64,000 bases of DNA from Gordius albopunctatus (taxonomy: Eukaryota): contig OZ193909.1 in NCBI GenBank assembly GCA_964276515.1, positions 7,378,001 through 7,442,000 on the forward strand, read 5' to 3'. Shown here piece by piece: positions 2,928 through 49,309 of the stretch (the first letter of the stretch is position 1; each line of letters begins with the position of its first letter). The notes beneath the pieces were generated by a model that was not told where the DNA came from, ran no database searches, and worked only from the letters and a program-made list of their open reading frames with translations. Made by a program: the position numbers and the translations under genes.

Positions 2928-4040
2928 TATATGGCTGGAAGTTAAATTTATCAGCTTTTCCTCGTTAATTTTAAAAAGATATAAAAAGTTAATCCATTAG
3001 AAATAAGATTGACAGTTACAAGGCTATTTTACATATTTAATTTTTTATTGTGTAACTTTTTGTTCAAAGTCCGGGAGGGGGATGTTTAACCCCAACCCTT
3101 GAGTAAGGTAATAATAGTAGTGCTGGGTTTAACATACCTCTCGATCCCTGAGAGTGAACTTGTTAATTGAATATCAAGAGGGTGGTGGAACGTTGGGTTT
3201 ATAATTATTTTGGATAGGGTTCGATAATATGTCATAATAATTTCGGGTTGGATTAAGTCCAAGAATTTAAATTTGCATTCTGAGTTATATGGTAAACCCG
3301 GGTATCAAAGGTCATGGAGCAATTTTTGACAGCTTTAATACAGGGAAAAACTTTAATGATTGAAGAAGCATACAGATTTAGGTGAAAATGTGAATATATA
3401 TTATATTTAATAAAATATAGTTTAGTAAATAACTTTCTATTAAGAAAATATGTAGTAATAACCTATAATGTGTAATAAATGAACTGTTATATTATTAACG
3501 ATTTTTTAAGCAATCCTACAAACTTGGGTATAGCCATCTTTTATCCATATTTGCATGAAAACGACAAAATTTAGTTTTAATCCACAACTAACACATTTAG
3601 AACAAGATACTAAATGCTTATTTTTTTAAAATGATTATTAATTCAAACCTTTAAATTAACCTCAAATATCTGCGCGAAAGTTAAATTTAAATAAGGGAGA
3701 TAATAAAACAAGTTTAAATGAACAACTATTTATAAAGGTTCCATAATAAATTGGTTTATAGTCGAGTCAAAACACTGTTATTATGCTTATTTTATTTTTA
3801 AAGTTAAAAAATATTTGAGCCTTTATTGTAGTAATTTTAGTATACATTACCATCCTAATTAAACTCAATCTCCTCTAATTTATAAAATCTACATCATTAG
3901 ATCAAGCTATAGGGTAATATAAAATAAACAAACAATATTCATTTATTTTTTAGATTCCATTTTGCAGGCTTATTAAGAATTAAAAGAATCTCAATCATTA
4001 ATAAAACAGTTTATTTTAAAATTTTCATTAAATTACATAG

Positions 4041-5963
4041 ATTATCCCGATTCTCCCTGCAACACCTTCATTGGACCACACAATTTCCTAAGCGCTTTTC
4101 GTGCCCTCGAAAACTCAGCTAGGAATTTCGAATCAACAACCACTGATGATATATTCTTGAAGAATGAACAAGACAAAAGATATGGCAATAATAAAAGGAG
4201 TAGAACAAACTTTACGAGTTGGCAAATTGAACAATTGGAAAAAACATTCATGAAAAGTCACTACCCCGATATGTTTGCCCGAGAAACTTTGGCTACACAA
4301 TTGGAATTACTTGAATCCAGGATTCAAGTATATAGGAAATTTACTTATATTAAAATAATCTTTAAATCAACTAATATCCGTGTAATAAACTTTAATTTTC
4401 ACCTCAAGGTATGGTTCCAAAATAGGAGAGCGAAATGGAGGAAAAAAGAGCACACTAAAAAGGGTCCTGGGCGACCTGCTCATAACGCAAATTTAACGTC
4501 TTGCAGGTATATAAATGAGATTCATATGTGTAATTAGGAGGAACTTAGTCTGCTATACATTAGTATTGTATCTATACACCCCCCCCCCCAACTTGGTGAT
4601 ATCGACCCTAATAAAACTCATCTATTGTTAAAATTAATTTAGCGGCGAACCAATAGACCCCGAAGAATTGAAAAGGAGGGAAGAGGATAGAAAGGAAAAA
4701 AAGAGGAAGATCAAAATGTCGGGCGAGGGTTCTATAGATTCGATTCAAAGATCTTCGTGCAATTCTCGTAATTTGGTAGCAAATTGTGCGGAACAAAAGC
4801 ATGATAAAAGATCGAATTTTTTCGATGACAAAGCAAATCTTGACAAAAATTTACCGGACAATATCATATTCAAAGAGGAGCAAGTTACAGTCAGTTGCGA
4901 AAATATAGATGAAACGCTTGGGAGTAAAAGTCAACAATCACAAGGAATACATTTTTACAGCGCTGAAAAATGCGGGAAGGATAAAATAGCAAAGTCGGAA
5001 GACATTTCGTGTTATGGCAATTTTGGTGGTGATAGCCTTTCGTCATTCGCTGCCTCACTCATTAAAGTCATATACCCGGATTTAGCCGTGAATAAAAAGA
5101 GGGAAAGCAATAAATTTGGTACCAAAAAAGAAACTTCACACAAAGATAACTATGGTCTTACACCGAAAAGCAAATTTGATATAGACAGCATTCTAGCTAT
5201 CCGTTCAAATAATCTATCAATTGCCCAAGATTTCGACTGCAAAATTCTAAAGCGTAAACGTAAGCCAGCAAATATCAACAAAGGGGCCAGCAACGGCTTA
5301 AATAAAAGTAGTAAAATAAGGTTAGGCGAACCTGTAAAAGACAATACAAAAATAATATCGACTGCTAAAATGTTCATGACTGATATGAGATCTCTTAAAG
5401 TCACTAATAACGGGGCACCGATAGATGAGAAACCGTTGATAGCTTCACCCTCTCTAAAATTAACTTCAAAATTTCAAAAAACTGACAGTCACGGACTGCT
5501 TAACAAACGTGATGCCAATGAATTAGACGAAAGGCCAAATAGCAATTGCGAGGCTTCGACGTCACCTAATTTCTTTTGCGAACCTCCGCATTACCTAAAC
5601 CCACTTTGGCCTCGTTTTGAAAACGAAGGGAAACGGCAATTTTTTGAGCTATCACCATTTTGCTATCAAAAGCACGCCTTAAATGATTCGCAACAGGGCA
5701 TTGATATGCGAGGAGCAGATTTCGGTAGTCATTATCCCGAATGGCTCTTTCAAATATACTCATACTTTCTCACTCAATATCGTATGTGGAATAAATCTCA
5801 TGTCACTCCTTGTTCTCATACAAATCCATTCATGTTCCCTGCAGAGCTAATGAACGTTCATCCTGCGTGGACTATGCCCCAACTCCAAACATGCAACTCG
5901 AAACTACTGGGTCTATGGCATAGTGAATCCTTTCAAAAAAAAGTTTATGGTGATACCATGTAA
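4041..5963 (+). CDS. unc-4: UNC-4/UNCX paired-class homeobox transcription factor, 5'-incomplete model; exons 4041-4327, 4409-4506, 4643-5963
   Basis: Homeodomain [42 protein letters not shown] with the PRD-class intron between Q46 and V47 (GT 4328..AG 4408). After the second intron (4507-4642) it reads [39 protein letters not shown], the UNC-4/UNCX signature. eh1 motif FDIDSIL at 5175-5195. The start exon was not identified. Confidence 0.92.
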
Positions 5964-11372: not shown

Positions 11373-14300
11373 TTATGATCTAATTTCAATCCACTTGATC
11401 ACAATGTATCTCCGTTTTCCTATAATGTTTATTGTAAACAACTTAAAATACTATAAAGTTACCTATTTTGAGCAAGGATATATAACGCACCAATTCTCCT
11501 AAGTTAGCTGAAATCTCGGAAATTTTTAGTCTATCCATCGGATAAGTGTGCATATTCATTTCGAACGGCTGCGAAAAATCAACAATCCTTTGACCATTAA
11601 TGCGAACGGATTTGTCTTCTATGTACTCCTTCACTTCATCTTTATACAGATAGTACTCATCGATTAATTTTATTTATTCAAATTCCTGCTATATATACTG
11701 TTATCCCAAATTGACAAAACAAATTTATATTTGAATATTTTAAATCAGAATAGATTATAAACTCGTTCTTAATAAATCAAGCATTAAAAATCGTTAATTA
11801 TTACTTTCGCTTTTGATATTTGGACATAAGGTCATGAGCGTTCCAAGTGTCAGGGAGTTAAAATCTATTTTTAAGTCGGTAGGCGTGTTGGCAATTTTGA
11901 GTGCATTATTGGGAAGAAGTAATATAGACAAAGAGTCAACGTATTTTAAAATGAGACAGAGGGAAGGAATATCTGAATCCTTAAGTTGTTCGACGTTAAT
12001 TTCATCTCCATATATAAGTTGACTACACTTCGCACAATCTGCAGCCACGTCGGGTCCGTGTACTAATGTTGTCATAGCTTCGGCTAAAAGAGTTTGTCCA
12101 ATCCGTTTTTCTGGGCAACGCTAATATAATTAATAAAAGTGTTTAGTTTAGGGCAATAATAATCGTAGTGTTTAGTAGAAGACTGTTTCTGAGCTAATAA
12201 AATGTTTCGTAGAGATCCATAATATTCCAAATCACAAGCTTTATTCAACATGAACAAGTAATCAAAAACAAAAAAGTAATATGCCCATCGCCGATCATTA
12301 TTCAAATTAACCTGACGTTTTCGATCAGGTGATTATATCACAATAAGATGATGATAATCAAACAATTTTCCGACTATTCGTTACAAAATCGATATTAAAT
12401 TTTTTATATAATAAAAAATATTAATTATAATTATAATCCACGCATGGAAAGGTTACGGATCATCACAAAAAGTAATATTTAAATCAATCAATTTTTTTGT
12501 ATTGTTAAATGGCAAAAACAAATAACTTTTTAGTGATCTGGTAAGAAATTAACATTTATTAATTAACCAAGTGAAATAAAACGTTTTACACAATTTTGTA
12601 TCAAAATTTCATAATACGTGGTTTTAATAAATTCTTAGAGACTAAGCATTTATGAATTCTGTTCTATTGCTTCAAATAGAATTATCATTGTTTTGTCTTG
12701 CATAATTAAAATTTGGAAATAACTTACATTAGTTTCAGAACACACGGCATCAATCTTGTTCGCATCCCAAAAAGTGTAATAATTGAGATAATCGTTGAGT
12801 TTGTCATCAGGTAAACGTACAAAATGCTATAAATTAAAGATGTGGGCATATATTAATAAAAGCAACAATATTATCCAGCTATTTGCTATATAAAAAATGT
12901 AGCACTCTTTTTCAAAATACCCCATAGTCAATGGTTCACCATCCTCATACTATATTTGATAGGTGATTTTATATAAAAGCCAAATTAATTAACAATAATT
13001 TATAAAATCAACCTTAATATCTCGATAGTATGCTTACGGTTAATAACCACAAATTTCATAGCCAAATAGAGAAAATTTAATCAGTTAGCGCTGCTCGTTA
13101 TAAATCGACTTAAGAAATACAACACAAAAGGAACTAAACTAGTTAAAAAAACCTTTTAAAAGTGTAACTTCAAAAATATTTGCAAAATTTTAGCAGCGTT
13201 CAATGATGAAAAAAAGAAAGAATAATCCTTAAACTTGATAAAATGTGAATGGTGAAGTCATGGTGGAATCCAGCCATACAACATTTCCCACGGATTTCGA
13301 ATGCTTTTCTCCACTCCTCGACTTGATGAGGGGTGTCGTTATGCCTATAAAATTAACCCGAATTCAAACTTTACAATGAAATTAAATGTTTAATTTCGTG
13401 TTTTGCAAAAGGTAATACAAAGATACGTTTCAAAATTACAATGAGCTGTCTGGCCCGTTACTTTTTTGATCAATTCGTAGCCGGCTTCCATATTTCCCAT
13501 CTGATCAGAACCACCTATCTGCGTTCGTGTAACACCAATTTTAATCATCCATATGTATTTATTATATTGGCTAGCATTATAAAATATAGATAGACGCTTA
13601 ATTTACAAAATAAAAATAAACTACAGTAAATAATTGAAATTCCGTAGCCATACTTGAAATATGCAATTTTGGGTTCTGTAAAGGTGGAGCCAGTCGTAGG
13701 CCTGAAATACTTGATAAGTAAATTCGCGGAAACTTAACCCAGCGGATTCATCGTCCGATTTAATGCGCGATCTTATGCTAAAATGAATTATTTCGAGAAG
13801 ATTATTTTTTTTATACTATTCTTTCCTGAGCATGGTCCCCATACGAAAATGGCTGCCGATATCGGTTAGAAAAGTGATAGGATTCATAGCTTCATACCAT
13901 TCTAGATTACTCCATATTCTTATATATTAATAACAAAATTTGTTTGAAAAATCAAGATAGCAAACTATTAACAATCCATATGTGCAAAATAAAATGAGTG
14001 AGATGTGAGTTGGACTGGGAAGCCGAATCAAGCACATGACAAAAAATAGTCATTGATTTGATGCTACGTTTTTTGTGCATGCCAGTCTGTAAAATTCTTT
14101 TATTAATAAATAATTGAACTTAAACATCTGAAAATAAATAATGGTCAGGTTTGGCTAGCACAAAAGACATTACAATTGATTAAGATAAGGCGGCGTTCGT
14201 GATGACGCGCGAAGCGAAAAAAAGCGAAGTGAATTTTTGTGCTAATTTATCAAACATTTTATTATTATTTGTAATATCTTTATTTTAAGGCTTTTGTCTG

Positions 14301-17300
14301 TCATCTTAATAATATAGGAGCAATCATTTTAAAAAAGTTGAATTGTTTTTGTTAGTTTTGTTGCATTGAAAGCATAAATTTATTGGTAATAATTTAGTGA
14401 AGAAGAAAATCATGAAATTTGAAGCTTAATTTATATAAATATAGGGACATTTTATGTCAAATCGCCAGGTTTCAGCCGATCCCCTCAGATTTTTAGGAAT
14501 TTGGTAAAAATTTAGAAATTATTGATATTATGAAATGAAAATTTCGGCTCATTTGGTCACTATTTTTCGAATTGTAGGGGCTCAAAGGTCGAAAATTGGT
14601 CTTTTAAGGCACGGGTCATGAATTCACCCCCTAATTATAAAATCATGCTTTAGTGACAGGACAGGTGAGGCCTGTCCTAATAAAAAATTGAAAAATTTTT
14701 GTTGGTCGATTGGTCATCTAATAATAGCCGAAATGCCATTTCTACCGTAGACTAGTCCCAAATCTTTTACAATAAAAGACAAATCTTTTTTACCAGCTAT
14801 ATAAAATACCAAAATAAAAATGGCAGAAGCGACCATCCGGAAACGGTCAAAAAAGGCAAATAGAGACTTTTATCACTTTTGGCGCCGAAAAGGGCGCAAA
14901 AATTTTATCGTTGCTATTAAAGCAACTATATGTTTTTTTATAAAGCTAGTTTATCGATAAATACTGAACATAATATTAAATACTAGCTGTACCCGGCCAA
15001 GCGTTGCTTTGGCTCAGTCCTTAAGTGGTTAAATAAGTATAACCTATTAATAGGACTTATCTAAAATGGGGTCATATATGAAATAATAATTCAAATAAAT
15101 AAAATATCCATAATATTTATTTAGAGCACGAATTTTATCACGTCATGGATTTTATGAACCCACTATTTTTAGTATATATATAATAAGACTAACCAAATGC
15201 GAATTTAGTTTTAGTCATCAAATTCGACTAAAATTAAATGTTTTTGAAAAAATTGCTGATTAATGCTGTTACTTATTATACAATAAAACCATTATTTTAT
15301 TTTTCTAGTTAGCTGATTTATTTGAAATACAATTTTCTTTAATATAATAAAATAATTAATTGAAGGATGTATAATTATTAAAAATATGCTTCTATGATCG
15401 ACCACGTGATAATAATTTAAATATTATTTATTTAATTTAAATGGTTTGTTAAACCCCAATAATTTTGACCGTAGACTGTAACATGTTTATTATACTTTTA
15501 AATATCTAATTCGAAAAAACTTCAGCCTTGTATGTATGACGTCATTATTGTAAATGATGCTATAAATGAAAGTGGCCGGGAAATGTCCGATATTTTTAAA
15601 ACGAAAAGGTATTTTAGGAATCTGAAAAGGCTATTTTACCCCTGGCCGCCCTGGGAACCTACGGGTAAAGTTTCGAGCGAATTGGGCCGGTAGTTTTAGA
15701 ATTAAGCCCTTTTTTAAAACTAAAAGGAATTTTAGGATTCTGCAAAAGCTATTAATTTAAATTGTATTTATTTAATTTAAATAGTTGATTCAACCCCAAT
15801 AATTTTGACCGTATACTGTAACATTTTGATTATACTTTTAAATATCTAATTCAAGAAAACTTCAGCCTTGTATGTATGACGTCATTATTGTATATGCTGC
15901 TATAAATTAAACTGGCCGGGAAATGTGCGATATTTTTAAAACGAAGAAGTATTTTAGGAATCAGAAAAAGCTATTTTACCCCTGGCATCCCTGGGCATCT
16001 ACGGCTAAATTTTCGCGCAAATCGGGCCGGTAGTTTCAGAATTAAGCCATTTTTTAAAACTTAAATACCCATATTTTTAAAACTAAAAGGAATTTTAGGA
16101 TTCCGAAAAAGCTATTTTACCCCTGGCCGCCCTGGGAACCTACGGGTAAATTTTCGCGCGAATCGGACCAGTAGTTTCAGAATTAAGCCATTTTTTAAAA
16201 CTTAAAGACCCATATTTTTAAAACTAAAAGGAATTTTATGATTCTGAAAAAGCTATTTTACCCCTGGCCGCCCTGGGAACACTCGAGTAAATTTTCACGC
16301 GAATCGGGCAGGTAGTTTCAGAATTTAGCCCTTACATACATACACACATACATAGACTTTATATATATAGATTACAATTATATAATAATATTAAAAAACA
16401 TTATATATAAGTAATATGTCTTCATCTTCATTTTTTAGAGGAGGCCAATCCAAAAAGATTTGAAATTAAATTTTGCTATGTAAATTGCAGTTGATTGCTT
16501 CAATAAAAAAGCGGGGGAGGATTTAGAGGGAGGGGATCGCCTACCTATTTTTTTGAATAAAGCCAACGCCAGTTTTACAGAATCCTGAACAGGAGGAAAC
16601 TATTGTGATAAAATTCTAGCCTCCAAGAGGGCCTTGTATTTTTTGAGCTTCCGTTCTTCGGCGAGGGCTATGGGGTCATAATCAAGATTAGAGGGGAAAT
16701 AAGTCAATGCATTTAAAATCCGATTATAAAAGGAGGCCGTTTTCCAATACCACAATCCCTCCCTCCCATTTTCCAAAAAATTTTTAATCGAGATAAATCA
16801 AAATAGCGAATGACTTTTTTGGGCAATAACATTATTATTTTTAGAAAAATCATTGAGTTTAATATTATTTTTTATATATTTCTTATTGGAGACCTGCAAC
16901 GGGCCTGTTTAGGTCACTCGGTCCGCCTGTTATAAAAATTTACAAGCCCGGACCCGTCAAAATATTAAATTATAGCCACAGGCCTCGCCCACTTATTACA
17001 AAGACCGAGCCCGGGCCCGTATAAAACGTTTTTTTATTGTTTAATTTTACAAATTTGTTAAACAATTTACATGTGTTTAAAATGTTAATAATAATATTGT
17101 AAAAAAATTTATTAATAATTCCTGGTCAGACGAGTTCCTTTTTCTTTAACGAAGCGACCTACAAGAAAAAATTGCTTCTACAATTGGTACTTGAACTCGG
17201 GATTAGGGCCCTGAAAAAAGGAATTTTATCGGCCCGAGCCCGACACTTTTTATTATATATTGCCCAAGCCCGGCCCGACTTTTTTGAAATGTAAATTTAC

Positions 17301-20300
17301 AAAAAAATTTTGCCCACCCTTTTATTTAACATAAAATATTTTGTTTCCTTTAAATAGCCTAATCATCAAAGGAATTAGTAAAAAGTTTTGAAAAATCTTT
17401 TAGCTAGATCTTGTCTCGGATCGGGTTGATCCATCAGGCCAAACCCGAGCCCGATTATTTTTAATTTTTGGCCCAAGCACGGCCCGTCATCGGGCGGACT
17501 TTGGACGGCCCCTGTAGGGCTCTAGTCGGGATTTATAAAACCATTTATGCCAAATAAACTTTTAAAACCTTTATTCAAGTTTATAATGTTTTTAAAGTTA
17601 CTTGGCTTCTTTGCTTTTTGACAATTATAAATCTTTTAGGCTATTGATATCTTCTTCTTTATCGTGTTGAAAATCTCACAGACGTGGGGTACGTTTTCAG
17701 CAGCCTCTTCCATCTGAGTCGTGTGAATGCCATGCCAATTTCCATCTGTTTGACGTCCATATCCTTTTCGACCAGTCGTTTCCAGGTGGCACGTGGTCTG
17801 CCCCTTCCTCTTCTTCCAGGCACGTCCATCTCCAGCGTTCGGCGTGTGACATCGTCTTCGTCTCTTCGTACATGGCCGTACCACCGCAGTCGATTTTCTC
17901 TTAAGAAGTCCTTCGTCGCTTGTATACCCATCTTTGTCATCAAGGATTCGTTCGTCTTGCGATCCAGCTTGGTGTAGCCTAAGCTCCATCGCACCATTCT
18001 CATTTCCGTGACTTGCAAGAGTTTCTCCTCCGCAGTGGTTACAGCCCATGTTTCGCTCCCGTAAAGCAAGACCGGTCGCACGATGGTTTTGTACGCCTTG
18101 CTTTTCAACCAAATTGGTATCTTTTTGTCACACATGACACCGGAGATGCTGCGCCACTTGAGCCATGCTTTCTTGATCCGAGAATGGACTTCGGCGGTAC
18201 ATCCTCCCTCTTGATGTAATAGCGAGCCAAGATATGTGAACTTATCAACCTCCGTGTACCTTGGACCGTCAATTTTGTGCATTTGCGGACTACCGCCCAT
18301 CGTTTGCATGTAAACCGTTTTCTTCTCGCTGACCTTTAACCCGAATTCCGAGAAACGTTCTGACCATTTTTTCGCCTGATGAAAAACCCCTTCTCTTGTT
18401 TCATCGCATAGGACAATATCGTCGGCATATAGCATAGTCCAAGAGGCTGGCTTGTGCAAGTCCTTTGTTATTGTATCCATAATTAGATTAAACAAGAATG
18501 GGCTTAACGCTGATCCTTGATGTAGTCCGATCATTATTCGGAAGGGTTTCGTTACTCCTACGGTAGTCCTAACAGATGCAACCGCGCCATTATACATTTC
18601 CTTGATAAGTCGAACATATCCTTCGGGTATATTTCTGGCTCTAAGGGACCACCATATTAAGTCTCTCGGAATCGTATCGTAGGCCTTTTCTAAATCGATG
18701 AAGACCATGTGTAATTTATTTCTTATGTCGCCATATTTTTCCATCGTCTGCTTCAACGCAAAGATTGAGTCCATCGTTGATTTACCGGCCACAAATCCAA
18801 ACTGATTGGGCGAGAGACAAACTTCGTCATTGAGCCTTTTCACTAGCACCCTTTCTAGTAGTTTTAGTGAGTGGCAGGTCAACTTGATACCTCTAAAGTT
18901 GCCACATTCCTGCGCGTCTCCTTTACCTTTGTATATGGGTATGATCGTACTTTCCCTCCATTGGTCAGGGATACGACTCTCATACAGCATAGCGTTAAAT
19001 AGGCCTGTCATTATGTCGATTCCTTCTCCTTTGCACCCAAGCCAAGCTTCGATCGGTAGATCATCGGGACGTAGCGCTTTCCCTTTCCGCACCTTCGTTA
19101 GTTGTGCTCCTATTTCATAAGCCTGAAATGGTAAAACCAAGTTCGAGTTCGGTTCCACCCTCTCTAGCGGTCTTCTATCATTTGTTTTGTTCATCATATT
19201 TTGGAAATAATCTTTCCATCTTTTGATGACTTCCTTCGGTTTGCACAACGTTCGTCCCTCTTCGCTTTTAATGACTTTAAGTGTCCCGACATCTCGACTT
19301 TTTTACTCCCTGATCTTTGCGAGTTTATACATGACTATGTCGCCGCCCTTGGTATCGAGCTTGTTTGCCATCTCGGTGTAAGCGTTGTTCTTCGCTATCG
19401 CGACCGCTATCTTAGCTTTGCGTTTCGCTTCACGATATGCCTCGTAGTCTTCTCCTTTCTTCGTTTTGTACCATCGTAGGTACAACGTCTTCTTTTCTTC
19501 TATAACCTCTTTGACCGAGTCATTCCACCACCATAGTTCACGCTTGTGAGCTCTGCCGCCCTTAGTTCGTCCCAATATTTGTAAGGCCGTTTCCTTTAGA
19601 ACATTTGCAACGGTGCCCCACCTTTTGTTAATGTCGCCCTCCAAGCCTGCAACCTTCAAGAGCGGAGTTGCTCGAGTGTGAAACATTTCATTTGCATGAT
19701 CATCCTTAAGCTTTTCGTACTTTGTCCTTGGTGTGTAGACTTTTCTCCTTACGGGAAAAATCTTTCTTGCTATATCGAGGACAACTGGCCGATGTTGTTT
19801 GGCGATTTCTTCCCCCGGTATAACCTTGCAATCTTTAACTTGCCACAAATTTATGCGCTTCACTAATATGTAGTCGACCTGTGTAAGGTGATTTCCACTA
19901 CTGTACGTCGCTAAATGTTCGGTACGCTTCTGAAAGAAGGTATTCACAATGGCCATATCGTAAGCTTGCGCCATCTGTAGTAACTTCTCTCCCTCTTTAT
20001 TTTTCACTCCATAGCCATGCCCGCCGTGATTTCGTTCTTACACGCCCCTTTCTTTCCCAACGTGCCCATTAAAGTCTGCTCCGATGATGAGATTCTCGTC
20101 AGGCTTCACGTAGCGTATTTCTTCTTCGAGCTTCTCATAGAAATCGTCCTTCTCGTTTTCGGAACATCCAACCTGGGGCGAATACGCACAAATAACATTG
20201 ACAAGGCCGCCTTGATCCGCCAGCTTTATGCACATCAATCTATCCGAGCATCGTTTGACTTCGACTACCTTGTCCTTAAAGGAATCGCTAAGCACTATAC

Positions 20301-23194
20301 CGACCCCGTTCTTCCGTGATGGGGAACCCGAGTAGTACAGCTTGTAACCATCTCCTAGCTCCCTGGCTTTTGTTCCATGCCACCGTGTTTCTTGTAGACA
20401 CGCTATGTGTATCCTTCGTCTTTTTAGCATCTGCGCAACCTCGATGCTCTTCCCCGTCAGCGTGCCAACATTCCAGCTAGCCACTCTTGTCCGTTCGACA
20501 ACTAGGTTCCTTAACCGCCTTCGTTGTGAGTGAGGCGGTGACCCTTGTATACTTTTCACATTGCACGGGTGGATGATGCAATGCGCGTCGTTTGGGGAGG
20601 ACGCCCTAGCATTCTGGTATAAGTTCGTATTTGAAGCTGCCATGGTGTTTGGAGTTGCTTTTTACAGCCGGCTTCCGACCTGACGCCAACCCTCCACTTT
20701 TTTCACACGGACTTGGGACCGTCGTTAATTAAAAAATAAAGGAAACTTCAAGAAAATATAACAAAATTTGTTTTTTAATTTTTTAAGAGTTATGTATTAA
20801 TAATTGGATGTTATTTAAATGCTCAGTAATAAATTATGAAATGCCCAGTAAAATGTGCTCAGTATTTTATTAAAGTACCCAGTTAAAAATTCAAAATTGC
20901 TCAGTAAATTAACTTTAAAATGCTCAGCTTTAAATTAAAAAATGCTCAGTAATATAAATTAATAATTTGTGATATTAATTTATTTTACGGGGGTGATTTG
21001 CCCCCCCCCCTTTTACCCTCTTCTCAACCGGATTCTTTTTCTCACGTGAGGGTCAAATCACCCCCCTCCCCCTGGTGAGAAAGAGGACCAAAAAAGAAGG
21101 GGGAAAGCAAATCACCCCCCTCCTCTCCCCTGGTGAGGAAGAGGGCAAAAAAATAAGAGGGGGGGGGGGCAAATCACCCCCTCCCCCAGGTGAGAAAGAG
21201 GTAAAATTAAATTTCAGTTACTGAGCAAAAATTTACTGAGCAGCATAGAAATAATAACTGAGCAAATAATCTAAATTACTATTAGTGAGCATTTAATTAT
21301 TCCACTGAGCAAAAATTAAATTAAATACTGAGCACAATAATTTGTTGTTTTTATAATTTTAGGCAATATTAAATTAATTCACTCAATATTGCTAGATGTT
21401 ATAAATGGGGATGCAAAGATAGGCAGCTGCCCCACCCCCAAAATTTCTTGTTATAAAAACATTTTTTGACCTACCTAAACTGCCCCCTTCTAATTTGAAT
21501 TGGCTACGCACATGGGGTTATGTGTATAAATAATCTAACCCATTTATGGTGGGGGTTGAGATATTGATGAATGAATAAACTAAGATGGAAATAAAATTTA
21601 ACAATTCATAACTAATCATCAAAATATAACTAAAAACCCATTTTGTAGCTTATTTAGGTAAAAAAAATCACTCGTTTTCTTGATGTGTTTTGATTTGAAA
21701 TTGGTAGATGGGGGTAGGGATTGGGGTGTGGTATTAATCCATAGCAAAATTATTATTATTATTATGGATACTTATAGTATGAGACTGCTTAAAGAGCAAT
21801 CAAAGATTATTTTGTGGTAGTTTTAACAATAAAAGTGATATGGTACATATTTTTGCTTCTTTTTGACCATTGCTGGATGGTTGCCCAACTCCTCTTTTAT
21901 TTAAATTGTTATATAAGTGGTAAAAAACATTTTTTTAATTTTTAAAAGGTTTGGGACTAGTCAATGGTAGAAATGACATATTGCCTTTATGAGATGATCA
22001 ATAAACCTACAAATATTGAGATAGGTCTTATCTGTCACTACACAACATTTGATGATTGAATTTAGCATCATGATCTGATGCAATGAAGTAAAAGATTGGT
22101 GTTTGATCTTTGAGCCCCAAATAGGCTAAAAATTTCATAATTAAAAAATATGAATAGTTTTTAAGTTTTCACCAAATTTCATATAAATCTGAGGGGGTTG
22201 GCCAAAAACGCGTTATGATCTAATAGATAAGGAATACCCCTATGTTGGAATAATAGAATTTAGAACTGCAACCCTGGTTTCAGCTTGTAACATTCAAGAT
22301 TACAATCAATCTCTATGCTAATATTATGTCATTCTTTAAAAATAGTTTAATATTATCCTCAATGGTGCAAAAATAACTCTAATTATAACATTATCTTTAA
22401 TGAGTGACTAAGGACTTTAGTTTAAATACTTTTAAATGTGTATAATTTAATGCTTATCAATTGTCATTCTACAAAAATATTGTCACACCCCCCACAATCA
22501 CTTGCAAATCTATTTAGTTCCTCAAATGGATACAAAATAAAAGTCCTCAATTTTTTGGGTAATACTATTGAAATTCATTTATACAGATTTTGTTAATCAT
22601 ATGACATAAAAGAAAAAAATATCATAAAATTAAATAACAATCAGCCTACTTTGGTTTTATTAATTTGGAGGAGCATATGTTGTTGTCCCAAAAATAATTT
22701 TCATGGTTATTAAAAATTGATAGTATAGTTTTCTTTATACTTTCGAAATTATTTTTAATAACAACCTCTTTAATACTAATTCTATCAGTTTCTTTTCCAG
22801 ATGGATCCCCAATTTTGGTTGTGGCCTCACCTAACTATTAAATAAATTTTTAGAATTAAAAATAATTAAGCAATTCAATTAACATAGCAGAGGTATCTTA
22901 CAACAATATGTGATTGATGACCATGTCTTTGCCACCTTATAAGTGCAAGAATAATCAAGAGATTTCCTAGGTGAACATTTTTAGCTGTTAAATCAATTCC
23001 AGTATATATATTAATTGGAAATTTAGAGTCGATCGTGTTTTCTCTAGTATTGTATTTAAAAATTTATAAAAAAGTTACTTAATATTTGGCAAAATAGTTT
23101 TAATTAATTTCCTAGCCTTAAGTTCATAAATAATATTTTTAGTTAGTTGAGAGATTGCACGAGTGCAAATATGGCAAAATTTTGAATTTCGCAT
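11373..23194 (-). CDS. YARS2: Mitochondrial tyrosyl-tRNA synthetase, 11 exons: 23194-23079, 23043-22902, 22834-22650, 13918-13817, 13777-13654, 13518-13440, 13344-13235, 12826-12728, 12120-11805, 11639-11463, 11419-11373 (~498 aa)
   Basis: Manual GT-AG splicing gives one continuous frame. It contains a basic N-terminus (MRNSKFCHICTRAISQL), YTGIDLTAKNVHLGN (HIGH motif), LGEATTKIGDPSGK, GSHFRMGTML, FREFTYQVFQAYDW, Q|IGGSDQMGN, GEKHSKSVGNVVWLD..TSPFTFYQ, PEKRIGQTLLAEAMTTLVHG and ISLLKIGKRRYIVIKW*. All exon phases are compatible. Confidence 0.95.
14983..16371 (-). mobile_element. Non-autonomous Helitron-like element with internal tandem repeats
   Basis: On the minus strand it begins TC and ends CTAG, inserted between A and T. 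Subterminal hairpin GCCAA..TTGGC, (CATA)n near the 5' end, ~141-bp tandem units (15951, 16092, 16233) and a ~340-bp duplication. Confidence 0.8.
16887..17524. mobile_element. hAT-family MITE (CCCG repeats) in YARS2 intron 3
   Basis: TGGAGACCTGCA...TGTAGGGCTCTA termini and GGCCCGAGCCCG repeats like 54854-55930; no matching TSD seen. Confidence 0.65.
17651..20725 (-). mobile_element. RTE-clade LINE copy 1 (APE endonuclease + RT), near full length, inside YARS2 intron 3
   Basis: ORFs 20643-20038, 20007-19303 and 19248-17659 share one frame, interrupted only by TAA at 20038 and 19303. APE motifs SWNVGTL, CLQETRW, GADFNGHVG, TQVDY; RT motifs GLHQGSALSP, LYADD; C-terminal RGRGRPR; short (AAG)n tail. 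Confidence 0.95.
20686..20725 (-). ncRNA. 5'-truncated twister ribozyme at the 5' end of RTE copy 1
   Basis: ACGACGGUCCCAAGUCCGUGUGAAAAAAGUGGAGGGUUGG matches copy 2 but lacks the 5' AACACUACCU, which carries the cleavage-site A and the 5' strands of P2 and the AC pseudoknot. Confidence 0.85.
20818..21336. repeat. MITE-like block with opposed TGCTCAGT / ACTGAGCA arrays and central ~62-bp tandem units
   Basis: Several TGCTCAG copies on the left and ACTGAGCA copies on the right; CAAATCACCCCC..GGTGAG.AAGAGG three times. Confidence 0.65.
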
Positions 23195-31246: not shown

Positions 31247-32061
31247 TAGAGCCCTGCACGGGTGACCCGACGCCCGGGTCGGGTTCGGGTTAAAAATTTT
31301 AAAATACCTTCTTGTCGGGTTGAAAATTTTATAATAGTTTCGGGTTCCGGTTGAAAAATTTAAAACGCTTTCGGGTCGGGTTAATGTTGCAGCCTGAAGA
31401 GCTTAATGAGCTCTATGACGAGATTAGGTCATTAATGAATGATAAAAGTTGCGAAAGTCTAAAGGAAAAGCCAGTTGTTTAAAGGGAGGTATCAAAGGAA
31501 AATAATCAGCTAGGTATTTAACATATAACTTCATGTTAAAATATATTTTAGAAGATAATGCTAACTTGTCTTTCATGGATTTTTCCGGTTGGGAGGAATG
31601 TGCAGATGAAAATGTTCAAGAAAAAGATGAACTTGATGAATATATTCATTATAAACTTACAAAAAAGGATGATGAAATATACGACACATTAGAATGGTGG
31701 AGAATATATTCTTATAAATATCCTGCTTTAGGGTTATTGGCTCGTAAATTTCTGGCCATACCTGCCTCCTCTGCGTCCAGTGAGAGATCTTTTTCTACGG
31801 CTGGACGAATTTTAGAAAATAGGAGGTCGAGTTTACGGCCTGAAATTGTAGACGCTATTATATTTATACCTAATTATAATAATTCTCTCAAATAAATTTA
31901 TTATTCAAATTCGTGGTGTCAAATTGTTTCTCCAATTTATTTTGGCAAATCAATTTAAAATATTTAAAACGCTTTCGTGTTTGGTCGTTTTTGGGTTGAA
32001 AAATTTTTAAACGCTTTCGGTTCGGGTTCGGGTTGAAAAAATGTGACTTTGCAGGGCTCTA
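31247..32061 (+). mobile_element. hAT deletion derivative carrying the hATC dimerisation domain (31533-31895)
   Basis: TIRs TAGAGCCCTGCA / TGCAGGGCTCTA; TSD ATTGGGCC / ATTAGGCC; LEWWR..YPALGLLARKFLAIPASSASSERSFSTAG. Confidence 0.9.
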
Positions 32062-34093: not shown

Positions 34094-37000
34094 TTTTATT
34101 CTTATTCTTGTTTATCAGTTATTTGGTCCCACATTGGTGGGGTTTGTTTTGATGAGTCTCTTCCATCTTGACCGGGTTAGTGCCATGTCTTGACTAATCT
34201 CTTTAGTTTCCATAACTTTATCGACTTGCCCTTTCCACGTGACACGGGGTCGTCCTCTTCCTCTCTTCCCCGGTATTTTCATGTCTAGCACTTTTCGATT
34301 TACGTCATCCGGGTCCCTTCTTAGTATAAGCCGATTTTCGTTAATCATGTCCGCCATAGGTTGAATACTCATTTTTGTCATGAGAAAGTCAATCGTCATA
34401 TGGTCGAGCTTAGTATACCCCAAGCTCCACCGTATCCTTCTCATCTCCGTGTCTTGTAATAGCTTTCCTTCCGTGGTGTTTAATGCCCATGTTTCACTTC
34501 CATAGAGTAACACCGGTCTTACGATGGATTTGTAAGCTTTGCTCTTCAAACATATTGGCATTTTCTTGTCGCACATTACACCGGATATACTTCGCCATTT
34601 AAGCCATCCTTTTTGAATCCGGGCATTGATTTCAGTTGCGCAACCTCCTTCTTGATGTAGCATAGAGCCGAGGTAATTAAACCTGTCTACTTTTGGGTAT
34701 TTTAGGTGATCATCCAGCGATGGGGTGCTTGTACCGTTCATTTCCATGTATACCGTTTTTGGATCGTTGACCTATAAACCATATCCAGCTAAGCGTTTTG
34801 ACCACTTTTCTGCTTTTTCGAATACCTTCTCCCTTGTTTCCTCGCATAGTACTATATTATCGGCATATAGCATACACCATGGCGATGGCTTTTGAAAGTC
34901 CCTCGTTATCGTGTCTATAATTATATTAAATAAAAAGGGACTTAAAGCAGAGCCTTGATGTAATCCAATATTAACCCGAAAAGGTTTAGAGTCTCCATCT
35001 GTCGTCCTAACGCAAGAGTTTGAGGCTTCATAGATATTTTTCATAAGCCGTATATATGCGTCAGGGATATTTTGTTTCCTCAGGCACCACCATATTAAAT
35101 CGCGGGGACCGTGTCATAAGCTTTCTCTAAGTCGATAAAAACCATATGTAGGTCTTTCCTCTTTTAACCATATTTATCCATCATTTGTCCTAGGGCGAAG
35201 ATTTTGTCGATTGTGGATTTGCCGGCCACGAATCCGAATTGATTAGCCGATATTTCCACCTCGTTTTTCAGCCTTGTTACTAAGATCCTTTCCAAAAGCT
35301 TCAAGGAGTGACAAGTTAGCTTGATACCTCTGTAATTGCCGCAGTCCTGAGGGTCTCCTTTTCCTTTGAATAAGGGTATAATCGTGCTTGCTCTCCATTG
35401 ATTAGGGATTCGCTCTTCTACCAATATCTTGTTAAGGAGGTTCGTCATGGTGGTGACTCCTTCTTCACGACATCCGAGCAATGCTTCCATAGGTATTCCA
35501 TCTGGGCCATTTGCTTTTCCTTTTTGCATCTTGTTCATTTGTGTCCTAACTTCATCCTTCTGAAAGAGTTCGACGATACTTATATTTGGCTCAATTTCGG
35601 GAAGGGAATCCTTGTCATTTGCAATATTCATAAGTTTCTTAAAATATCCTTTCCACCTTTCCATCACTTCCTTCGGCTTGAATAAGGTTTGACCCTTCTC
35701 GCTTTTGACTATTTTAAGAACTCCGACATCTCGACTTTTCTTCTCCCTTATCTTGGCCAATTTGTACATAAGCCTATCGCCCCCTTTATGATCCAGTTTG
35801 TTTGCCATCTCGGTGTACGCAGCATTCTTCGCTTTTGCAACGGCCTTTTTTGCGCCCCTCTTTGCGTCCCTGTACTCTTGATAATTCTCCGACTTTTTTG
35901 ATTTATGCCACCGTCTATATAGATTTTTCTTTATTTCGATGAAATCTTTAACCGATTGATCCCACCACCATAGTTCCCTATTCATAGCTTTGCCTCCTTT
36001 GGTCTGTCCTAGAACACAAATCGCTGTTTCCTTAATGTCCTTAGATAGCGTTTCCCAATCTTCGTCTACGTCCCTTTGCAACTTCCTTGCACCCAAGAGT
36101 GAGGAGGCTTTTTGATGGTATTCTTCGTTCGTCGACGTATCCTTTAGCCTTTCGTATCGAATTCGAGGTTCATATACCTTTCTTCTTTCGGGAAATACTC
36201 TTCTGTCAAGATCCATAAAAAGGGGACGATGTTGCCTGGCGATTTCTTCTCCCGGTATTACTTTGCAATCTTTGATACTCCATAAGTCCTTTCGCCGTAT
36301 AAGAAAATAGTCTATTTGACTAAAATGCTTCCCACTTCTATAGGTCACAATATGATCTTCGCGCTTTTGAAAATAGGTGTTAACGATCGCCATTTCATAT
36401 GCTTGGGATACTTGGAGCAGTTTTTCCCCTTCTTTGTTCTTCAGACCATGCCCATAGCCTCCATGATTGCGTTCATACCCGAGGCGATCTTTCCCTACGT
36501 GAGCGTTGAAATCGGCCCCAATAATTAGCTTTTCTTCCTGTCGGATTCCTTGTATTTCCTTTTATTCGAAGAATATGTCTTTCTCTGATTCCGAACACCC
36601 AATTTGGGGAGCATACGCGCACATAACGGTTAGGAGGCCCCCTTGATCCGCAATCTTCACCCACATTAGCCTGTCGGAACAACGTTTGACTTCCACCACC
36701 TTGTCCTTGAACGATTCGCTTAGAACGATACCGACCCCGTTTCTACGATTTGGTGACCCACTGCAGAAAAGCTTGTATCCTTCTCCTAATTCCCGAGCCT
36801 TCGTTCTGTTCCACCTCGTCTCTTGTAGGCAGGCGATGTGTACCTTTCTTCTTTTTAACATCTGTGCGACCTCGATGCTCTTCCCCGTCAACGTTCCCAC
36901 ATTCCAGCACGTAATTCGCATTCTTTCCACAACTAGTTTCCTTAACCGCCTTCGTTGTGAGTTGGGCAGTAACCCTAGTGTATTTTTTACATTGCACGGG

Positions 37001-37169
37001 CGGGGTATGCAGTGCGCGTCGTTTGTGGAGGACGCCCTAGCCTTTTCTTGTAAAATCTCGTTTGAAACTATCATAAATTTTGGAGTTGATTTTTATAGCC
37101 GGTTTCCGACCTGACGCCAACCCTCCACTTTTTGCACACGGACTTGGGACCGTCGTAGGTAGTGTTGTT
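34094..37169 (-). mobile_element. RTE-clade LINE copy 2, full length but frameshifted
   Basis: ORF pieces 37074-36562, 36393-35164, 35044-34772 and 34747-34115 are paralogous to copy 1 and share its 5'UTR. Tail AAGAATAAGAAT(A)n; probable 6-bp TSD GTTTTT (34088-34093 / 37170-37175). Inserted in a CAGTGGCGTA-terminated DNA element. Confidence 0.93.
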
Positions 37170-37170
37170 G
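37117..37170 (-). ncRNA. Twister ribozyme (type P1) at the 5' end of RTE copy 2
   Basis: Minus strand reads CAAC^AACACUACCUACGACGGUCCCAAGUCCGUGUGCAAAAAGUGGAGGGUUGG. P2 CACU/AGUG, P4 ACG/CGU, pseudoknots AC/GU and CCC/GGG, conserved GAGGG strand, possible 3-bp P1 CAA/UUG. Confidence 0.9.
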
Positions 37171-37277
37171 TTTTTGATTAATAACCTAATTAAAATTAAA
37201 ATGCTTTTATTCGCTAAAATTGGTACATGAAATATATAATAAACGAGCTTAAAATAATATTATAAATAAATAAAAAA

Positions 37278-38790
37278 TTATTCATCACAATCGTCAATAG
37301 CAAACACGGGCCATGTGTCAGAAAAAGATTTGTAATTATATTTAGCTATCAGAATGCCGCTTTTTTGGCGTAAAATAAACCTGGGTGAGTATTTAGCTTT
37401 GGGGGATCTGTTTCCTATCGATTTAAAAAAAGCTAATGCTTTTTTGCCAAAAGTGGCCGAACAGGAAGCTACTATTGGAATAAAGATCTTAGAATGAGCA
37501 ATGGCTCGGTATTTGAGTGTCTTGCGATCTTCGGCACAAGAAAGTGGGTTATAATTATTATTAGTTGGCGCAAAAATATCTATGCAGGTAAAGTCCCATG
37601 CTAGGAACTTACCATCCTCCCAGGGGATCATAGAAGCTCCGTCGGGACGCATTCTACCTTCTAAAGAAAAATCGGATGGTTCAAGGATGGAAGGAGTTCC
37701 GGCCTTTTCTAAAGCCGATTGGATTAAAAGGTTTATCTTTCGATGTCGGATAAAGCGATATTTGTTTAACTTGCAATGAAGTGGGTGATGAGCCCAGATA
37801 TCTATTTCCTTATTGCAATTTTTGCAGGGATATCCTATGGTAACTTTAATACCTAGGCGGAGAGCTATTGCATACGAAACTTCTGGATTTGAAAGCAAAA
37901 GTCCTGAGTGTTTACTTGGGATACATTCAAGCCATTCGTGACCAGAGTCGGCCGTAAGTGACCTGAGATTAAAATGCTGCACAGTATCACAACTCGAAAG
38001 TAGGTAAGCGACGGAGCGCGATACTATACTGGCATCCCAATCTCGTTGTTTTACCGACTCCGTAAGGCTGGTTCCTGGTATGACGTTCTCATGCCAAGAC
38101 AATATGGCCAATTCCGTTAAAAAATCATTTGATTGAGAGGTTAATTCAAAAACAAGATCCTTCACAGATTTAAAGGACGAGAGAAAAGCCACAAGGGAAA
38201 TAGTGAGTGGGGACCTAATTCCTAAGCCCCCAAATTTGGTTGGAAGCGTGGCCTGCAGCCAGCTGGTATTATCAAAAGGTAGATTCAAAATTTTTTAAAG
38301 GAGATCTTTAATTGTAGATTCATATACTCTTAAAATATCTGTATGTAAGAAAGCAGCAGCTGATCTAAAACAGTGCTGAATTTTGGAGATGTTTAAAAGG
38401 TTTTTTATCATAAAAAAAGCTTGATGTCTAGGTAGTAGTTTTAAAAGATTAAATTTTGAGGCCAAAAAGACTAAATTCTTGTTTAAAAAGCTTTGTAAAC
38501 AGGTAGATCCACCTATTGGCGAGCCGAGCATTGATAGATTTTCTTTATTCACAATGGAATATGTTTTAAATATGGAATTTTGATCAAAGTTAGGGGGTTG
38601 TGAAACTTCGCATTTAGAATCATTAAGTGTTAGATTTAGGGATGCACAAAAGTCTTTAATTATATTAATTGCTTTAGTTACTTCTGCATGGCTGCCTGCC
38701 AAAGTTGCATCATCAAGATACCATACATGTAATGAAAGGTTACACTGGTTATTTATTTGATTTATTAGTTTTTGTATGCCCAACAAAATA
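37278..38790 (-). mobile_element. 5'-truncated CRE-like non-LTR retrotransposon (RT end + CCHC + restriction-like endonuclease)
   Basis: WYLDDATL, LGSPIG, WLQATLPTKFGGLGIRS, LRLG, CKNC..HHPLHC, RH, ILEP, RPDG, WDFT. Frameshift near 38290. Confidence 0.8.
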
Positions 38791-39903
38791 ATGGGGGTCC
38801 TAAATACGTTATAGTTTAGTTTTAAAGACAATTATAAAAACATAGAAACATAATATATATCTCAAACTTTTTATTTAATTTTTGACAAAATGTGATGTAA
38901 AATTTCCCAATATGATTGAGAAAAATGAAAAAAAACTTTTTTAAATATTTATTTCCCGTAAAAACACCAGACCGTCCCAGGAAGTAGATAACTAAGCGAT
39001 TAATGTTCTTCATTCTATATAATATTAATACTTTTATCATTTATCATATTTGTCTAAAGTTTTCTGCTAGAACCCATCAGGTTTGATAACTAAATTGCCT
39101 GCCAAGGCCAGCCAAAACGCTTTAATTGCCCAATTGACTAATGCTGTCCGAACTGCCGGAATCAAAATGACGATTTTAAATTTAAAATTTGATCTGATTG
39201 TAGAAGTTTGTGACAAAAAAATAGTAAACAATATAAAAAATCTCATTATGGTGCCCGCCCAGGCCTACTTAAAAATCTCAATTTAGAACGGTAGCCTGCC
39301 CGAACCCTTAGCCGAGTGGGCCCAGCAGGGAGCACAACTTTTTGGTTGTTTAACCCATTAAAACCCAAGAACCCCTCGATGAAAAAACTTGAAAATCAAG
39401 ATTTTTTATTAGTTTTATACCAAAATAACATCTGCATTTTATTTCCCGAAAAAACAATTCTAACTATATTTTTTAAAGCGTCGTATATATCATACGCTGG
39501 GAGACTCATATTTACCCCGCTATGTAATAATTTTAAATTATACGTAGTTAGCAAATTTTTATCTGCTAATACCTTCTTATAATAATTTAAAATATTAAGA
39601 TGAATGAAATCTAAATCAAAATTTTTATTCTCTAAGGATCAATACCCTCCCCCCCCTCATCCCCATTAGTCGCTCTATATTCATAAGTTTGGAAACAAAA
39701 TCCTTTTATAATAATTTTCTTCCGAATATTAGTATTTTAAACATTTATATAAAGAATTCAGCAATTAAAAATGCAATAATAATTTTCATTGCTTATTCAT
39801 TAGATCAATAATTAATTTATTAAAAGCCCTTATAAACGCCTATTAAAAGCGGCGCAACTTCTCTGTGTTGGGTTTTGGTAGACCAATGCTCAATGTCCTC
39901 GTA

Positions 39904-41325: not shown

Positions 41326-43591
41326 TGTGATACAAAAACACGACGAAAAAGTGTCCTGGCGTATATATCCAACGCCTTTATAAGTTACAACCAATTAACA
41401 ATAATTTGATCGCCAACGCGCGTGTAAATAACATCAACACGCAGGCAACTATCGTATCCCTGTAGGCACTTTACCTCTCTACAGTTCCCCCCTTTTTACA
41501 GACAAAATCCTTAAGGAATGCTGGCGGTTTCCGGCTACGTTGTGGGTATCTCGGTTCTTCCCTAGGCGTTCCTGTCTGGTTTTGGCTTTGTTCCCTTGTC
41601 GCACTTGTTACCCTGTTTTGTATTTGTACCCTTGGCGCATTTGTTCCCTCTTCCCTTTCTGATGATATTCTTTGTGACCACCCGTTCTCTTGCCCCAGCG
41701 TGGTCCAATCCAGGATTCTCCGTTTCCTTACTTGATCCAGATGTCGGTGGTGCTTTCTTCCCTGTGCCCATACATCGTAGGAACGACTCCCGTGTTTGGC
41801 CTTTATCGTGCCTTCCACCCATTTGCTTGGACCCAGGAACATGCGTACCCACACCAAGTCTCCTACGTTAAACATTCGTGGGTTCCCGGTCTCTACCCAT
41901 TGTTGTGGTACGGTTTCCCTTAATACCTCCCATTCGGTTCGTATACGCATTTTTAACATCATCTCTGCCGGGCTTTTATTGGTCGCGGGGTGTTTTGTCG
42001 ATCTATAGTTTTCCAGAAATCTATTTATCCCTACTTCCGACTCGTTCCTCATGATGGCTTCTTTCATTAATCGTACGTATCTTTCTGCCAAACCGTTCGA
42101 CGCAGGATGGTAAGGAGCTGTCCATCGCTGATTAATCCCTCTCATCTTGCAAAAGTTTTGTAAATCCTGTCCTTTGAATTGTGGGCCATTATCCGATATT
42201 AGCCATGGTGGATTTCCAAATCTGGTAAACGTCTCGGCAAGTTTTTTTATAATGGTTGTCGATGTGGTGTCTTCTAACTTAAACACCTCTACCCATTTCG
42301 AACTATTGTCCACCATCACGAGGTATGATTTACCCTTGAGAGGCCCCATGATATCGATATGTACTTGGACCCATGGTTTTTGGCTAGGTTGACACTCTAT
42401 CAACGGTGCCTTCTTCGCCGCCGTGGCCGTGTAATTGCAATTCCGGCATCCTTTCGCTACGCTCAATAAGTCCTCGTCGAGAGTAGGCCACCATATATAC
42501 TGCCGCGCCACTTCTTGCATTCGCTTGATACCCACGTGGCCCCTATGTAGTCTTTGTAGTACCGCTCCTCGTAACTTAGCCGGAATTAATATTCGTCGCC
42601 TTTGTAAAATATTATGTTTTTGGCTTCATGTAACTTTGGCAGGTGTTTTTCGTAGGAGCGTTTTAGCCCACCCGTGACCATTGTGTTTTGTTTACCTTTA
42701 ATCCACTCTTTTACTTGACGTAGCCCCGGATCATCCAAGGTGCGTTGTCTTACTACCTCCAATGAAATAAACGGATTCGTCGAGTCTTCTAGAATTTCCT
42801 CGGTAACCTGATACGCGTGTTCGTTCGGTTTCCTGGACAAGAAATCTGCCGCGTTTTCGGCTTCCTTGTTGTACTCGAACTTGGTCGTGTAGCCTGATAC
42901 CATGAGCGCCCACCTAGTTAGCCGAGGTGACCATTGTTCCTTGCCCTTTTTTCTCTGATCAAATATATATACTAGCGGTCTATGATCCGTCATAATAGTA
43001 ACGCTTCGTCCCTGTATAAATTCATTGAACTTTTTTAGTCCATACACCACCGCCAGAGCCTCTCGTTCGATCGTCGCATACCGGCTTTCGCTATCGTTTA
43101 ACGCTCTTGACGCATAGGCCACCACCCTCCAATTCTCTCCTGGTGCTCGTTGCTGTAAGATGGCCCCTAACCCTGTACTAGAGGCGTCCACGACCAGCCC
43201 CGTCTCCCAATCTCCATTAAAGTACGCCAGTACGGGGGCTTTCGTAAGGGCGGATTTGATAGCTTCAAACGCGCCTTGTTGTTCTCCACCCCAGTGGTAC
43301 ACCACATTTTTTTCATTAGTTTCTGAATCGGGTGTATGATTTTGGCGTAGTCCTTAATGAACTTTGAAAAGTATGCTGTTAACCCAAGGAAAGATTTTAT
43401 TTCTTTTTTGTTTGTTAAATTTTTCCACTGCTTGACTATCTCGGCTTTATTGTCGTTGATTTGAATCCCCTTGTTACTTATTACGTATCCCAAAAAGGTT
43501 ACTTCCTTCGCCCACAAGTTGCTCTTCGCGTGTAAATAACATCAACACGCAGGTAACTATCGTATCCCTGGAGGCACTTTACCTCTCTACA
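41326..43591 (-). mobile_element. Internally deleted Ty3/Gypsy LTR retrotransposon (Mag/K02A2.6-like)
   Basis: RT tail (FLGY), RNase H (VDASSTGLGAIL, YASRAL, EREALA, TDHRPL) and integrase (HIDIMGP, SDNGPQF, YHPASNGLAER). PPT AAAAAGGGGGGAAC precedes a TG..CA 3' LTR at ~41326-41483. A 65-bp 5' LTR remnant at 43527-43591 has 2 mismatches to it. Confidence 0.9.
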
Positions 43592-49115: not shown

Positions 49116-49309
49116 TTATTCATACATACATTCATACATACATACCCGCGGTTTTTGAACTAATTATTTAGCAATAAGATCTTCCCTTTCATTATTTTAC
49201 TTATAAAATCCATAGACTAGATAAAATCACATTTTGCACTTGCTTCATACTGAACCAAAATTTTATGCTTTCATTTTTCTTATAAAGATAAAAAACAAAA
49301 TTTTTAAAG

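Follow-up and report, generated by a model that had tools for sequence, protein, structure and literature searches.

A LINE copy with a predicted disarmed twister ribozyme in sense orientation within intron 3 of a putative YARS2 gene

The window, by which we mean the whole 64-kb stretch of DNA that was analysed, contains coding frames for a tyrosyl-tRNA synthetase (TyrRS) on the minus strand from 23.2 to 11.8 kb. Five of the eight exon frames scanned matched Pfam tRNA-synt_1b, and the exon 5 frame matched structure chains of bacterial-type and mitochondrial TyrRS. The gene was modelled to 11800, and the model has nine exons, with GT-AG intron ends and in-frame joining. There are 16 possible combinations of exon boundaries, and the joined coding length was 431-436 codons in the six of them that were printed. 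Since this is a spliced nuclear gene with an open frame for a TyrRS of the bacterial type, it can be read from its sequence as YARS2, the gene for mitochondrial tyrosyl-tRNA synthetase. YARS2 is essential in other animals. The class I signature regions of the TyrRS (23010-22970 and 13310-13280, minus strand) read DLTA..HLGN and HSKS, which differ from the usual forms; the generally known canonical class I signatures were used for this comparison. The features around intron 3 are as follows.

22650-22834, minus strand: exon 3 of YARS2, with the acceptor at 22834 or 22825
13919-22649, minus strand: intron 3 of the YARS2-type gene, 8,731 nt, GT-AG
20802-21360, no strand assigned: MITE-like multi-copy element with inverted repeats, lying upstream of copy 1 and with approximate boundaries
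17650-20725, minus strand: RTE-like LINE copy 1, 3' end approximate
13817-13918, minus strand: exon 4 of YARS2, with the ribozyme remnant about 6.8 kb upstream

Copy 1 is 3.08 kb long, has a single ORF and lies within intron 3 in sense to YARS2. An earlier note on this DNA had placed it in this intron and on this strand, and the coordinates agree, as the intron runs from 22649 to 13919 and the copy from 20725 to about 17650, both on the minus strand. The distance from copy 1 is 1.9 kb to the splice donor and 6,806 nt to exon 4. The copy consists of a 5' UTR, one frame for an APE endonuclease and a reverse transcriptase (RT), and a short purine-rich repeat tail. The frame begins with an ATG at 20643 and ends with a stop at 17661; it has premature stops at 20040 and 19305 and no frameshift. 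Both PF03372 and PF00078 were found in this one frame by Pfam. Of the 120 relatives listed, the majority combine these two domains in one protein of 960-1,070 aa and have 40-46% identity, and the named ones among the matches listed come from plants, nematodes, insects and fish. Copy 1 thus shows the layout of a Perere-3-type LINE, in which one ORF of about 1,000 aa encodes both APE endonuclease and RT and a short repeat tail follows. We call it RTE-like from its architecture, no listed protein match being labelled RTE. Two contigs of sequencing run X3 differed from copy 1 at 19 positions in 2,638 nt (0.72%), and copy 1 is therefore probably young, as judged from sequence divergence.

Intron 3 contains further repeats besides the LINE, at 20802-21360, about 17200-17530 and 15410-16318, and the last of these is also present at 2432-2859. 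The presence of several repeats suggests that insertions are readily tolerated in this intron. AATAAA occurs twice in copy 1 and 20 times in the entire intron. Premature polyadenylation caused by copy 1 was considered as a confounder, and this count was uninformative.

The sole other family member within the 64-kb window is copy 2. The two copies and the parts of their ribozymes are listed below.

34100-37166, minus strand: RTE-like LINE copy 2 with a frameshift, which shares 69% identity with copy 1 and begins at the twister cleavage-site A; the 3' end is approximate
37117-37171, minus strand: complete twister-P1 fold of copy 2, whose P1 5' strand (37171-37168) is flanking DNA
20686-20725, minus strand: retained twister-P1 part of copy 1, 40 of 50 nt
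from 20721, minus strand: P4/L4 of copy 1
20698-20695, minus strand: P2 3' strand of copy 1
20694-20690, minus strand: catalytic G and T2 3' strand of copy 1
20689-20686, minus strand: P1 3' strand of copy 1
20726-20800, minus strand: T-rich 5' flank in place of the 9-10-nt head, with no in-register cleavage-site AA and no target-site duplication

Copy 2 had been described as complete and intergenic. All parts of its fold are in place, and the flank supplies the P1 5' strand with three of four pairs. The intergenic position is consistent with the data, but an antisense intron is also possible. Between 23.2 and 60 kb, Pfam detected only transposon domains (100 of the 197 selected frames scanned, of 289 in all), and copy 2 could be antisense-intronic, as a plus-strand gene near 53-62 kb has no located 5' end. 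Being older, of another subfamily and possibly not intergenic, copy 2 is a weak control for copy 1. Its only candidates for a target-site duplication are 6 nt long and A-rich. The stop codon of an RT-bearing element in the same orientation (37278-38831, minus strand) lies 111 nt ahead of copy 2, which further weakens copy 2 as a control, and read-through from this upstream element could transcribe copy 2. Elsewhere in the window, two genes were found on the plus strand, one for a homeodomain protein at 3977-5963 and one encoding a Crb2/53BP1-type Tudor domain at 53200-62400. Regions 31506-31895, 55023-55394, 41471-43541, 47602-49159 and 57700-59743 contain hAT transposase fragments, an integrase/RNase H retroelement, another LINE fragment and a 2-kb element, the terminal arms of which are 99% complementary.

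The ribozymes of the two copies were compared using the Rfam twister-P1 model (RF03160). Copy 1 scored 28.1 bits (E 0.071) and copy 2 (37171-37117), which is without P3, scored 38.3 bits (E 8.8e-5); neither reaches the gathering score (67.2 bits). Homology between the copies begins at 20725 in copy 1 and 37156 in copy 2, 10 nt past the cleavage-site A of copy 2 at 37166, and the retained 40 nt differ at one base. P4/L4, the T2 pseudoknot and the catalytic G, the role of which is taken from PMC8501958, are present in both copies. Copy 1 has lost the AA of L1 and the 5' strands of P2 and T1. In register with the N-A-A cleavage site of L1, copy 1 has UU, whereas copy 2 has AA at 37166-37165. The P2 stem and T1 pseudoknot are complete and Watson-Crick in copy 2, whereas both lack their 5' strands in copy 1. 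The sequence therefore confirms that the first 10 nt or so of the twister are gone from copy 1; the exact loss is 9-10 nt, and 40 of 50 nt are kept. Because the AA and the 5' halves of P2 and T1 are lost and the flank offers no substitute, the copy 1 twister is predicted to be disarmed and would not cleave. The word "disarmed" used in the earlier note is upheld, as no in-register AA comes from the flank and even the nearest surrogate strand, at a distance of 648 nt, would need wobble pairs.

The missing 10-nt piece was absent upstream within intron 3, and the idea that the head was pushed away by a later insertion was rejected. Matches of 8 nt to the head occur three times in the window, copy 2 included, which is about chance level by a hand estimate; one of them lies at 12172 (minus strand), in YARS2 intron 8. 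We also considered a hairpin formed by the flank as a second lock on the ribozyme. The flank of copy 1 is predicted to pair with the 3' part of the ribozyme with an extra -4.7 kcal/mol. Pairing was equally good in 231 of 1,500 AT-rich flanks from the window, 49 of 201 T-rich flanks and 205 of 1,000 shuffles, and the hairpin was rejected as being at chance level.

Twenty sequencing runs cover part of the region, and contigs of four of them, X1-X4, were compared with positions 17300-21500. Among the 24 rows listed of 1,835 rows of loose contig ends, 69, 55, 6 and 73 contigs in X1, X2, X3 and X4, respectively, have loose ends at 20725. In consensus, these ends read the missing 10 nt and then turn into mixed AT-rich letters; the agreement was 0.55-0.57 compared with 0.56 expected if nearly all carry the head. 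A variant break at 20726 (25 contigs in X1, among the rows listed) corresponds to a loss of 9 nt. In all four runs, the element begins at the cleavage site at the family level, with the P1 5' strand supplied by the flank. Members of the family usually start exactly at the twister cut site and have varied flanks. Since the flanks vary at this exact start, each insertion site supplies its own P1 5' strand. As the loose ends carry the 10 nt, the head belongs to copy 1's own family and not just to the 69%-identical copy 2.

The summed contig depth, which is no copy number, was more than 1 million over the element in X1 compared with 400-700 for long flank contigs. In the 3' third versus the 5' third of the element it was 1.22 versus 1.19 million in X1, 0.21 versus 0.25 million in X2 and 0.51 versus 0.46 million in X4, and over the head it was 1.8-4.8 times that of the element body. 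The family appears abundant, and exact heads look common in it. The depth of the 3' junction contig was 713.7 in X1 and 129.4 in X2, with no consistent sign of heterozygosity. In some contigs, the head is joined to far-off element positions (18008 to 20659, 20531 to 20673 and 20460 to 20659), suggesting internally deleted, non-autonomous derivatives headed by a twister. The family, with its head and exact start unchanged, was also observed in X4 (organism B) and X3, both of which come from other studies. Metagenome contigs were searched for related loci, and 0 of 185 and 0 of 64 pattern matches were confirmed.

Twister T-variant ribozymes have been reported at the 5' end of Perere-3, an element of the RTE clade in Schistosoma mansoni (Liu et al. 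2021, PMC8501958). By analogy with Perere-3, the element would be read within host transcripts, the twister would cut the element RNA free from the host transcript, and target-primed reverse transcription of the freed RNA would produce the new copy at another site. In R2, which has HDV-like ribozymes that cut at the exact element end, fewer than 40% of full-length Drosophila 5' junctions are canonical, and the variable junctions are ascribed to microhomology priming (Eickbush et al. 2013, PMC3774820). As in R2, a template without target-matching sequence may lead to second-strand priming on chance microhomology, with trimming of the junction. We consider it fairly probable that copy 1 lost its head in this way, by imprecise 5' joining to a T-rich target at insertion, with the dead ribozyme as a by-product. 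The inserted copy would then leave the YARS2 pre-mRNA uncut and would be spliced out with the intron.

The ends of copy 1 bear on this reading. No target-site duplication of at least 6 nt joins both ends, and the 1.9 kb upstream (20726-22648) showed no duplication of at least 8 nt anchored at the 3' end. A target-site duplication for copy 1 was thus sought both near and far, and none was found. The missing duplication indicates an imprecise junction or a later small deletion rather than a plain early stop of reverse transcription. "Ordinary 5' truncation", which the earlier note had offered as an equally simple explanation, is therefore better taken as loss at the junction than as an early stop. 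The divergence of about 0.7%, which probably marks a young copy, favours loss at insertion over later decay, and the 20726 variant permits a 1-nt microhomology at the junction. On the other hand, exact heads look common in the family, as the depth stays level over the length of the element and rises over the head, so that the loss of 10 nt seen in copy 1 is not typical of its junctions. The analogy with R2 may also be limited, because the available passages of PMC3774820 deal with lost target DNA and added nucleotides and not with lost first bases of the element. R2 is moreover specific to a site in rDNA, has another class of ribozyme and varies mainly in target DNA. The empty insertion site was not among the 15 of 210 contig joints listed.

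Imprecise joining can coexist with selection acting afterwards on the inserted copies. The earlier note had proposed that an active twister would cut YARS2 pre-mRNA and that only dead insertions may be tolerated in sense introns. The premise is plausible, given that fast intronic ribozymes lower splicing (PMC10919898). The tolerance claim goes beyond a single-copy test because one copy was chosen after the fact, and its absolute form is less likely than a graded form of survivor bias. In the graded form, ribozyme-complete copies in sense introns of dosage-sensitive genes would cut the nascent RNA and be purged, which we regard as possible but rather unlikely. Fast synthetic intronic ribozymes led to unspliced mRNA and slow ones had no effect (Fong 2009, cited in PMC10919898). 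At the 3.5-4.1 kb/min given for mammals (PMC10919898), transcription would take about 2 minutes to reach exon 4, 6,806 nt away. Schistosoma variants with at least two A's cleave in vitro, and one does so in yeast (PMC8501958). The common look of exact heads in copy 1's family is in keeping with such purging as well. However, the case is a single copy chosen post hoc, and P1 depends on the flank: 6.5% of the 4-mers of the window give four contiguous pairs and 51% fail at the inner pair. Cleavage without P1 is termed inefficient (PMC8501958), and slow cutting may therefore apply to many complete copies. An intronic location is given as the reason why RTE and baggins elements with HDV-like ribozymes are transcribed (PMC6765202), an active intronic ribozyme is kept in the mammalian Cpeb3 gene (PMC10919898), and intronic elements show orientation bias from other causes (PMC3088655).

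A later small deletion across the 5' junction of a full-length insertion may have removed both the duplication and the first 9-10 nt. This is improbable in our view, even though one event would account for the missing head and the missing duplication together and there was time enough for private substitutions in copy 1, two stops included. A divergence of about 0.7% leaves little time, the reading frame of copy 1 has no indel, and the missing piece was not displaced upstream by the neighbouring repeat. Such a deletion would be the direct route if selection had rescued an active insertion. A 5' transduction, in which the flank was carried along from a donor with an already dead ribozyme and the true insertion start lies further upstream, is very unlikely. 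Non-cleaving variants may carry upstream host RNA (PMC8501958), but no 3'-flank duplication of at least 8 nt starting from the element end was found in 20726-22648, and the two 7-mers and two off-position 9-mers detected are at chance level. It is hardly credible that the remnant still cleaves by serving as the enzyme strand for a surrogate substrate strand at another place in the pre-mRNA. The part that is kept is similar to the enzyme strand of split twisters (PMC8501958), and six upstream surrogates have all P2 and T1 pairs, one of them with a perfect P2 strand at 23230 in exon 1. However, the nearest surrogate lies at a distance of 648 nt and the best at 2.5 kb, they would be held by only 6-10 pairs, and pairing with the adjacent flank is predicted to sequester the P2 3' strand (pair probability 0.99).

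Imprecise joining is also in line with what is known of Perere-3, whose 0A/1A variants are inactive and lack duplications, which was ascribed to target deletion (PMC8501958). As in Perere-3, the present family has a single APE and RT ORF, a twister-P1 at the very 5' end, a start at the cleavage-site AA, a P1 5' strand from the flank, and a dead variant without duplication. The P1 3' strand is the one found in five of the seven rows of Table 1 of that paper. Unlike in Perere-3, the P3 stem is absent here, and the T1 pseudoknot pair has covaried. The distance from the ATG to the cut site is 92 nt here and about 112 or 147 nt in Perere-3, and copy 1 is without 9-10 nt, whereas the dead Perere-3 variants are without one or two A's. 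Thus, the twister-headed RTE-like design is already published for Schistosoma, and copy 1 is a clipped copy of a further such family.

The intronic ribozymes of Cpeb3 and Fong 2009 likewise lie kilobases ahead of the next exon, and a fast one can lower mRNA; those ribozymes are intact and tested, whereas copy 1 is a truncated transposon remnant (PMC10919898). The present family would resemble RTE and baggins elements with HDV-like ribozymes, which are promoterless and released from host co-transcripts, introns included (PMC6765202). The ribozymes of those elements belong to a different class, and the available passages of that paper hold no count of intact versus broken ribozymes by orientation. 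Copies are not sorted by gene context in the available text of PMC8501958, whose supplements list genomic positions and may bear on gene context. No tally of intact versus clipped retrotransposon ribozymes by gene context was found in the limited literature searched.

The finding at copy 1 is real and, as a single case, ordinary; its value is the test that it suggests. Copies with an intact head and a good flank-supplied P1 may cut host pre-mRNA and so be lost from the sense introns of essential genes, where clipped ones such as copy 1 persist. This would make the high-copy family a natural experiment across the genome, although we hold this only tentatively and would sooner expect otherwise. 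The family looks abundant enough for such a test of context bias. If the bias holds, retrotransposon ribozymes would harm host transcripts in vivo and shape the survival of insertions, and this harm would be separate from the splice and poly(A) effects already known. The places open to the element would then be decided by whether its ribozyme is intact, and twister activity in vivo would be measured by how far intact copies are depleted.
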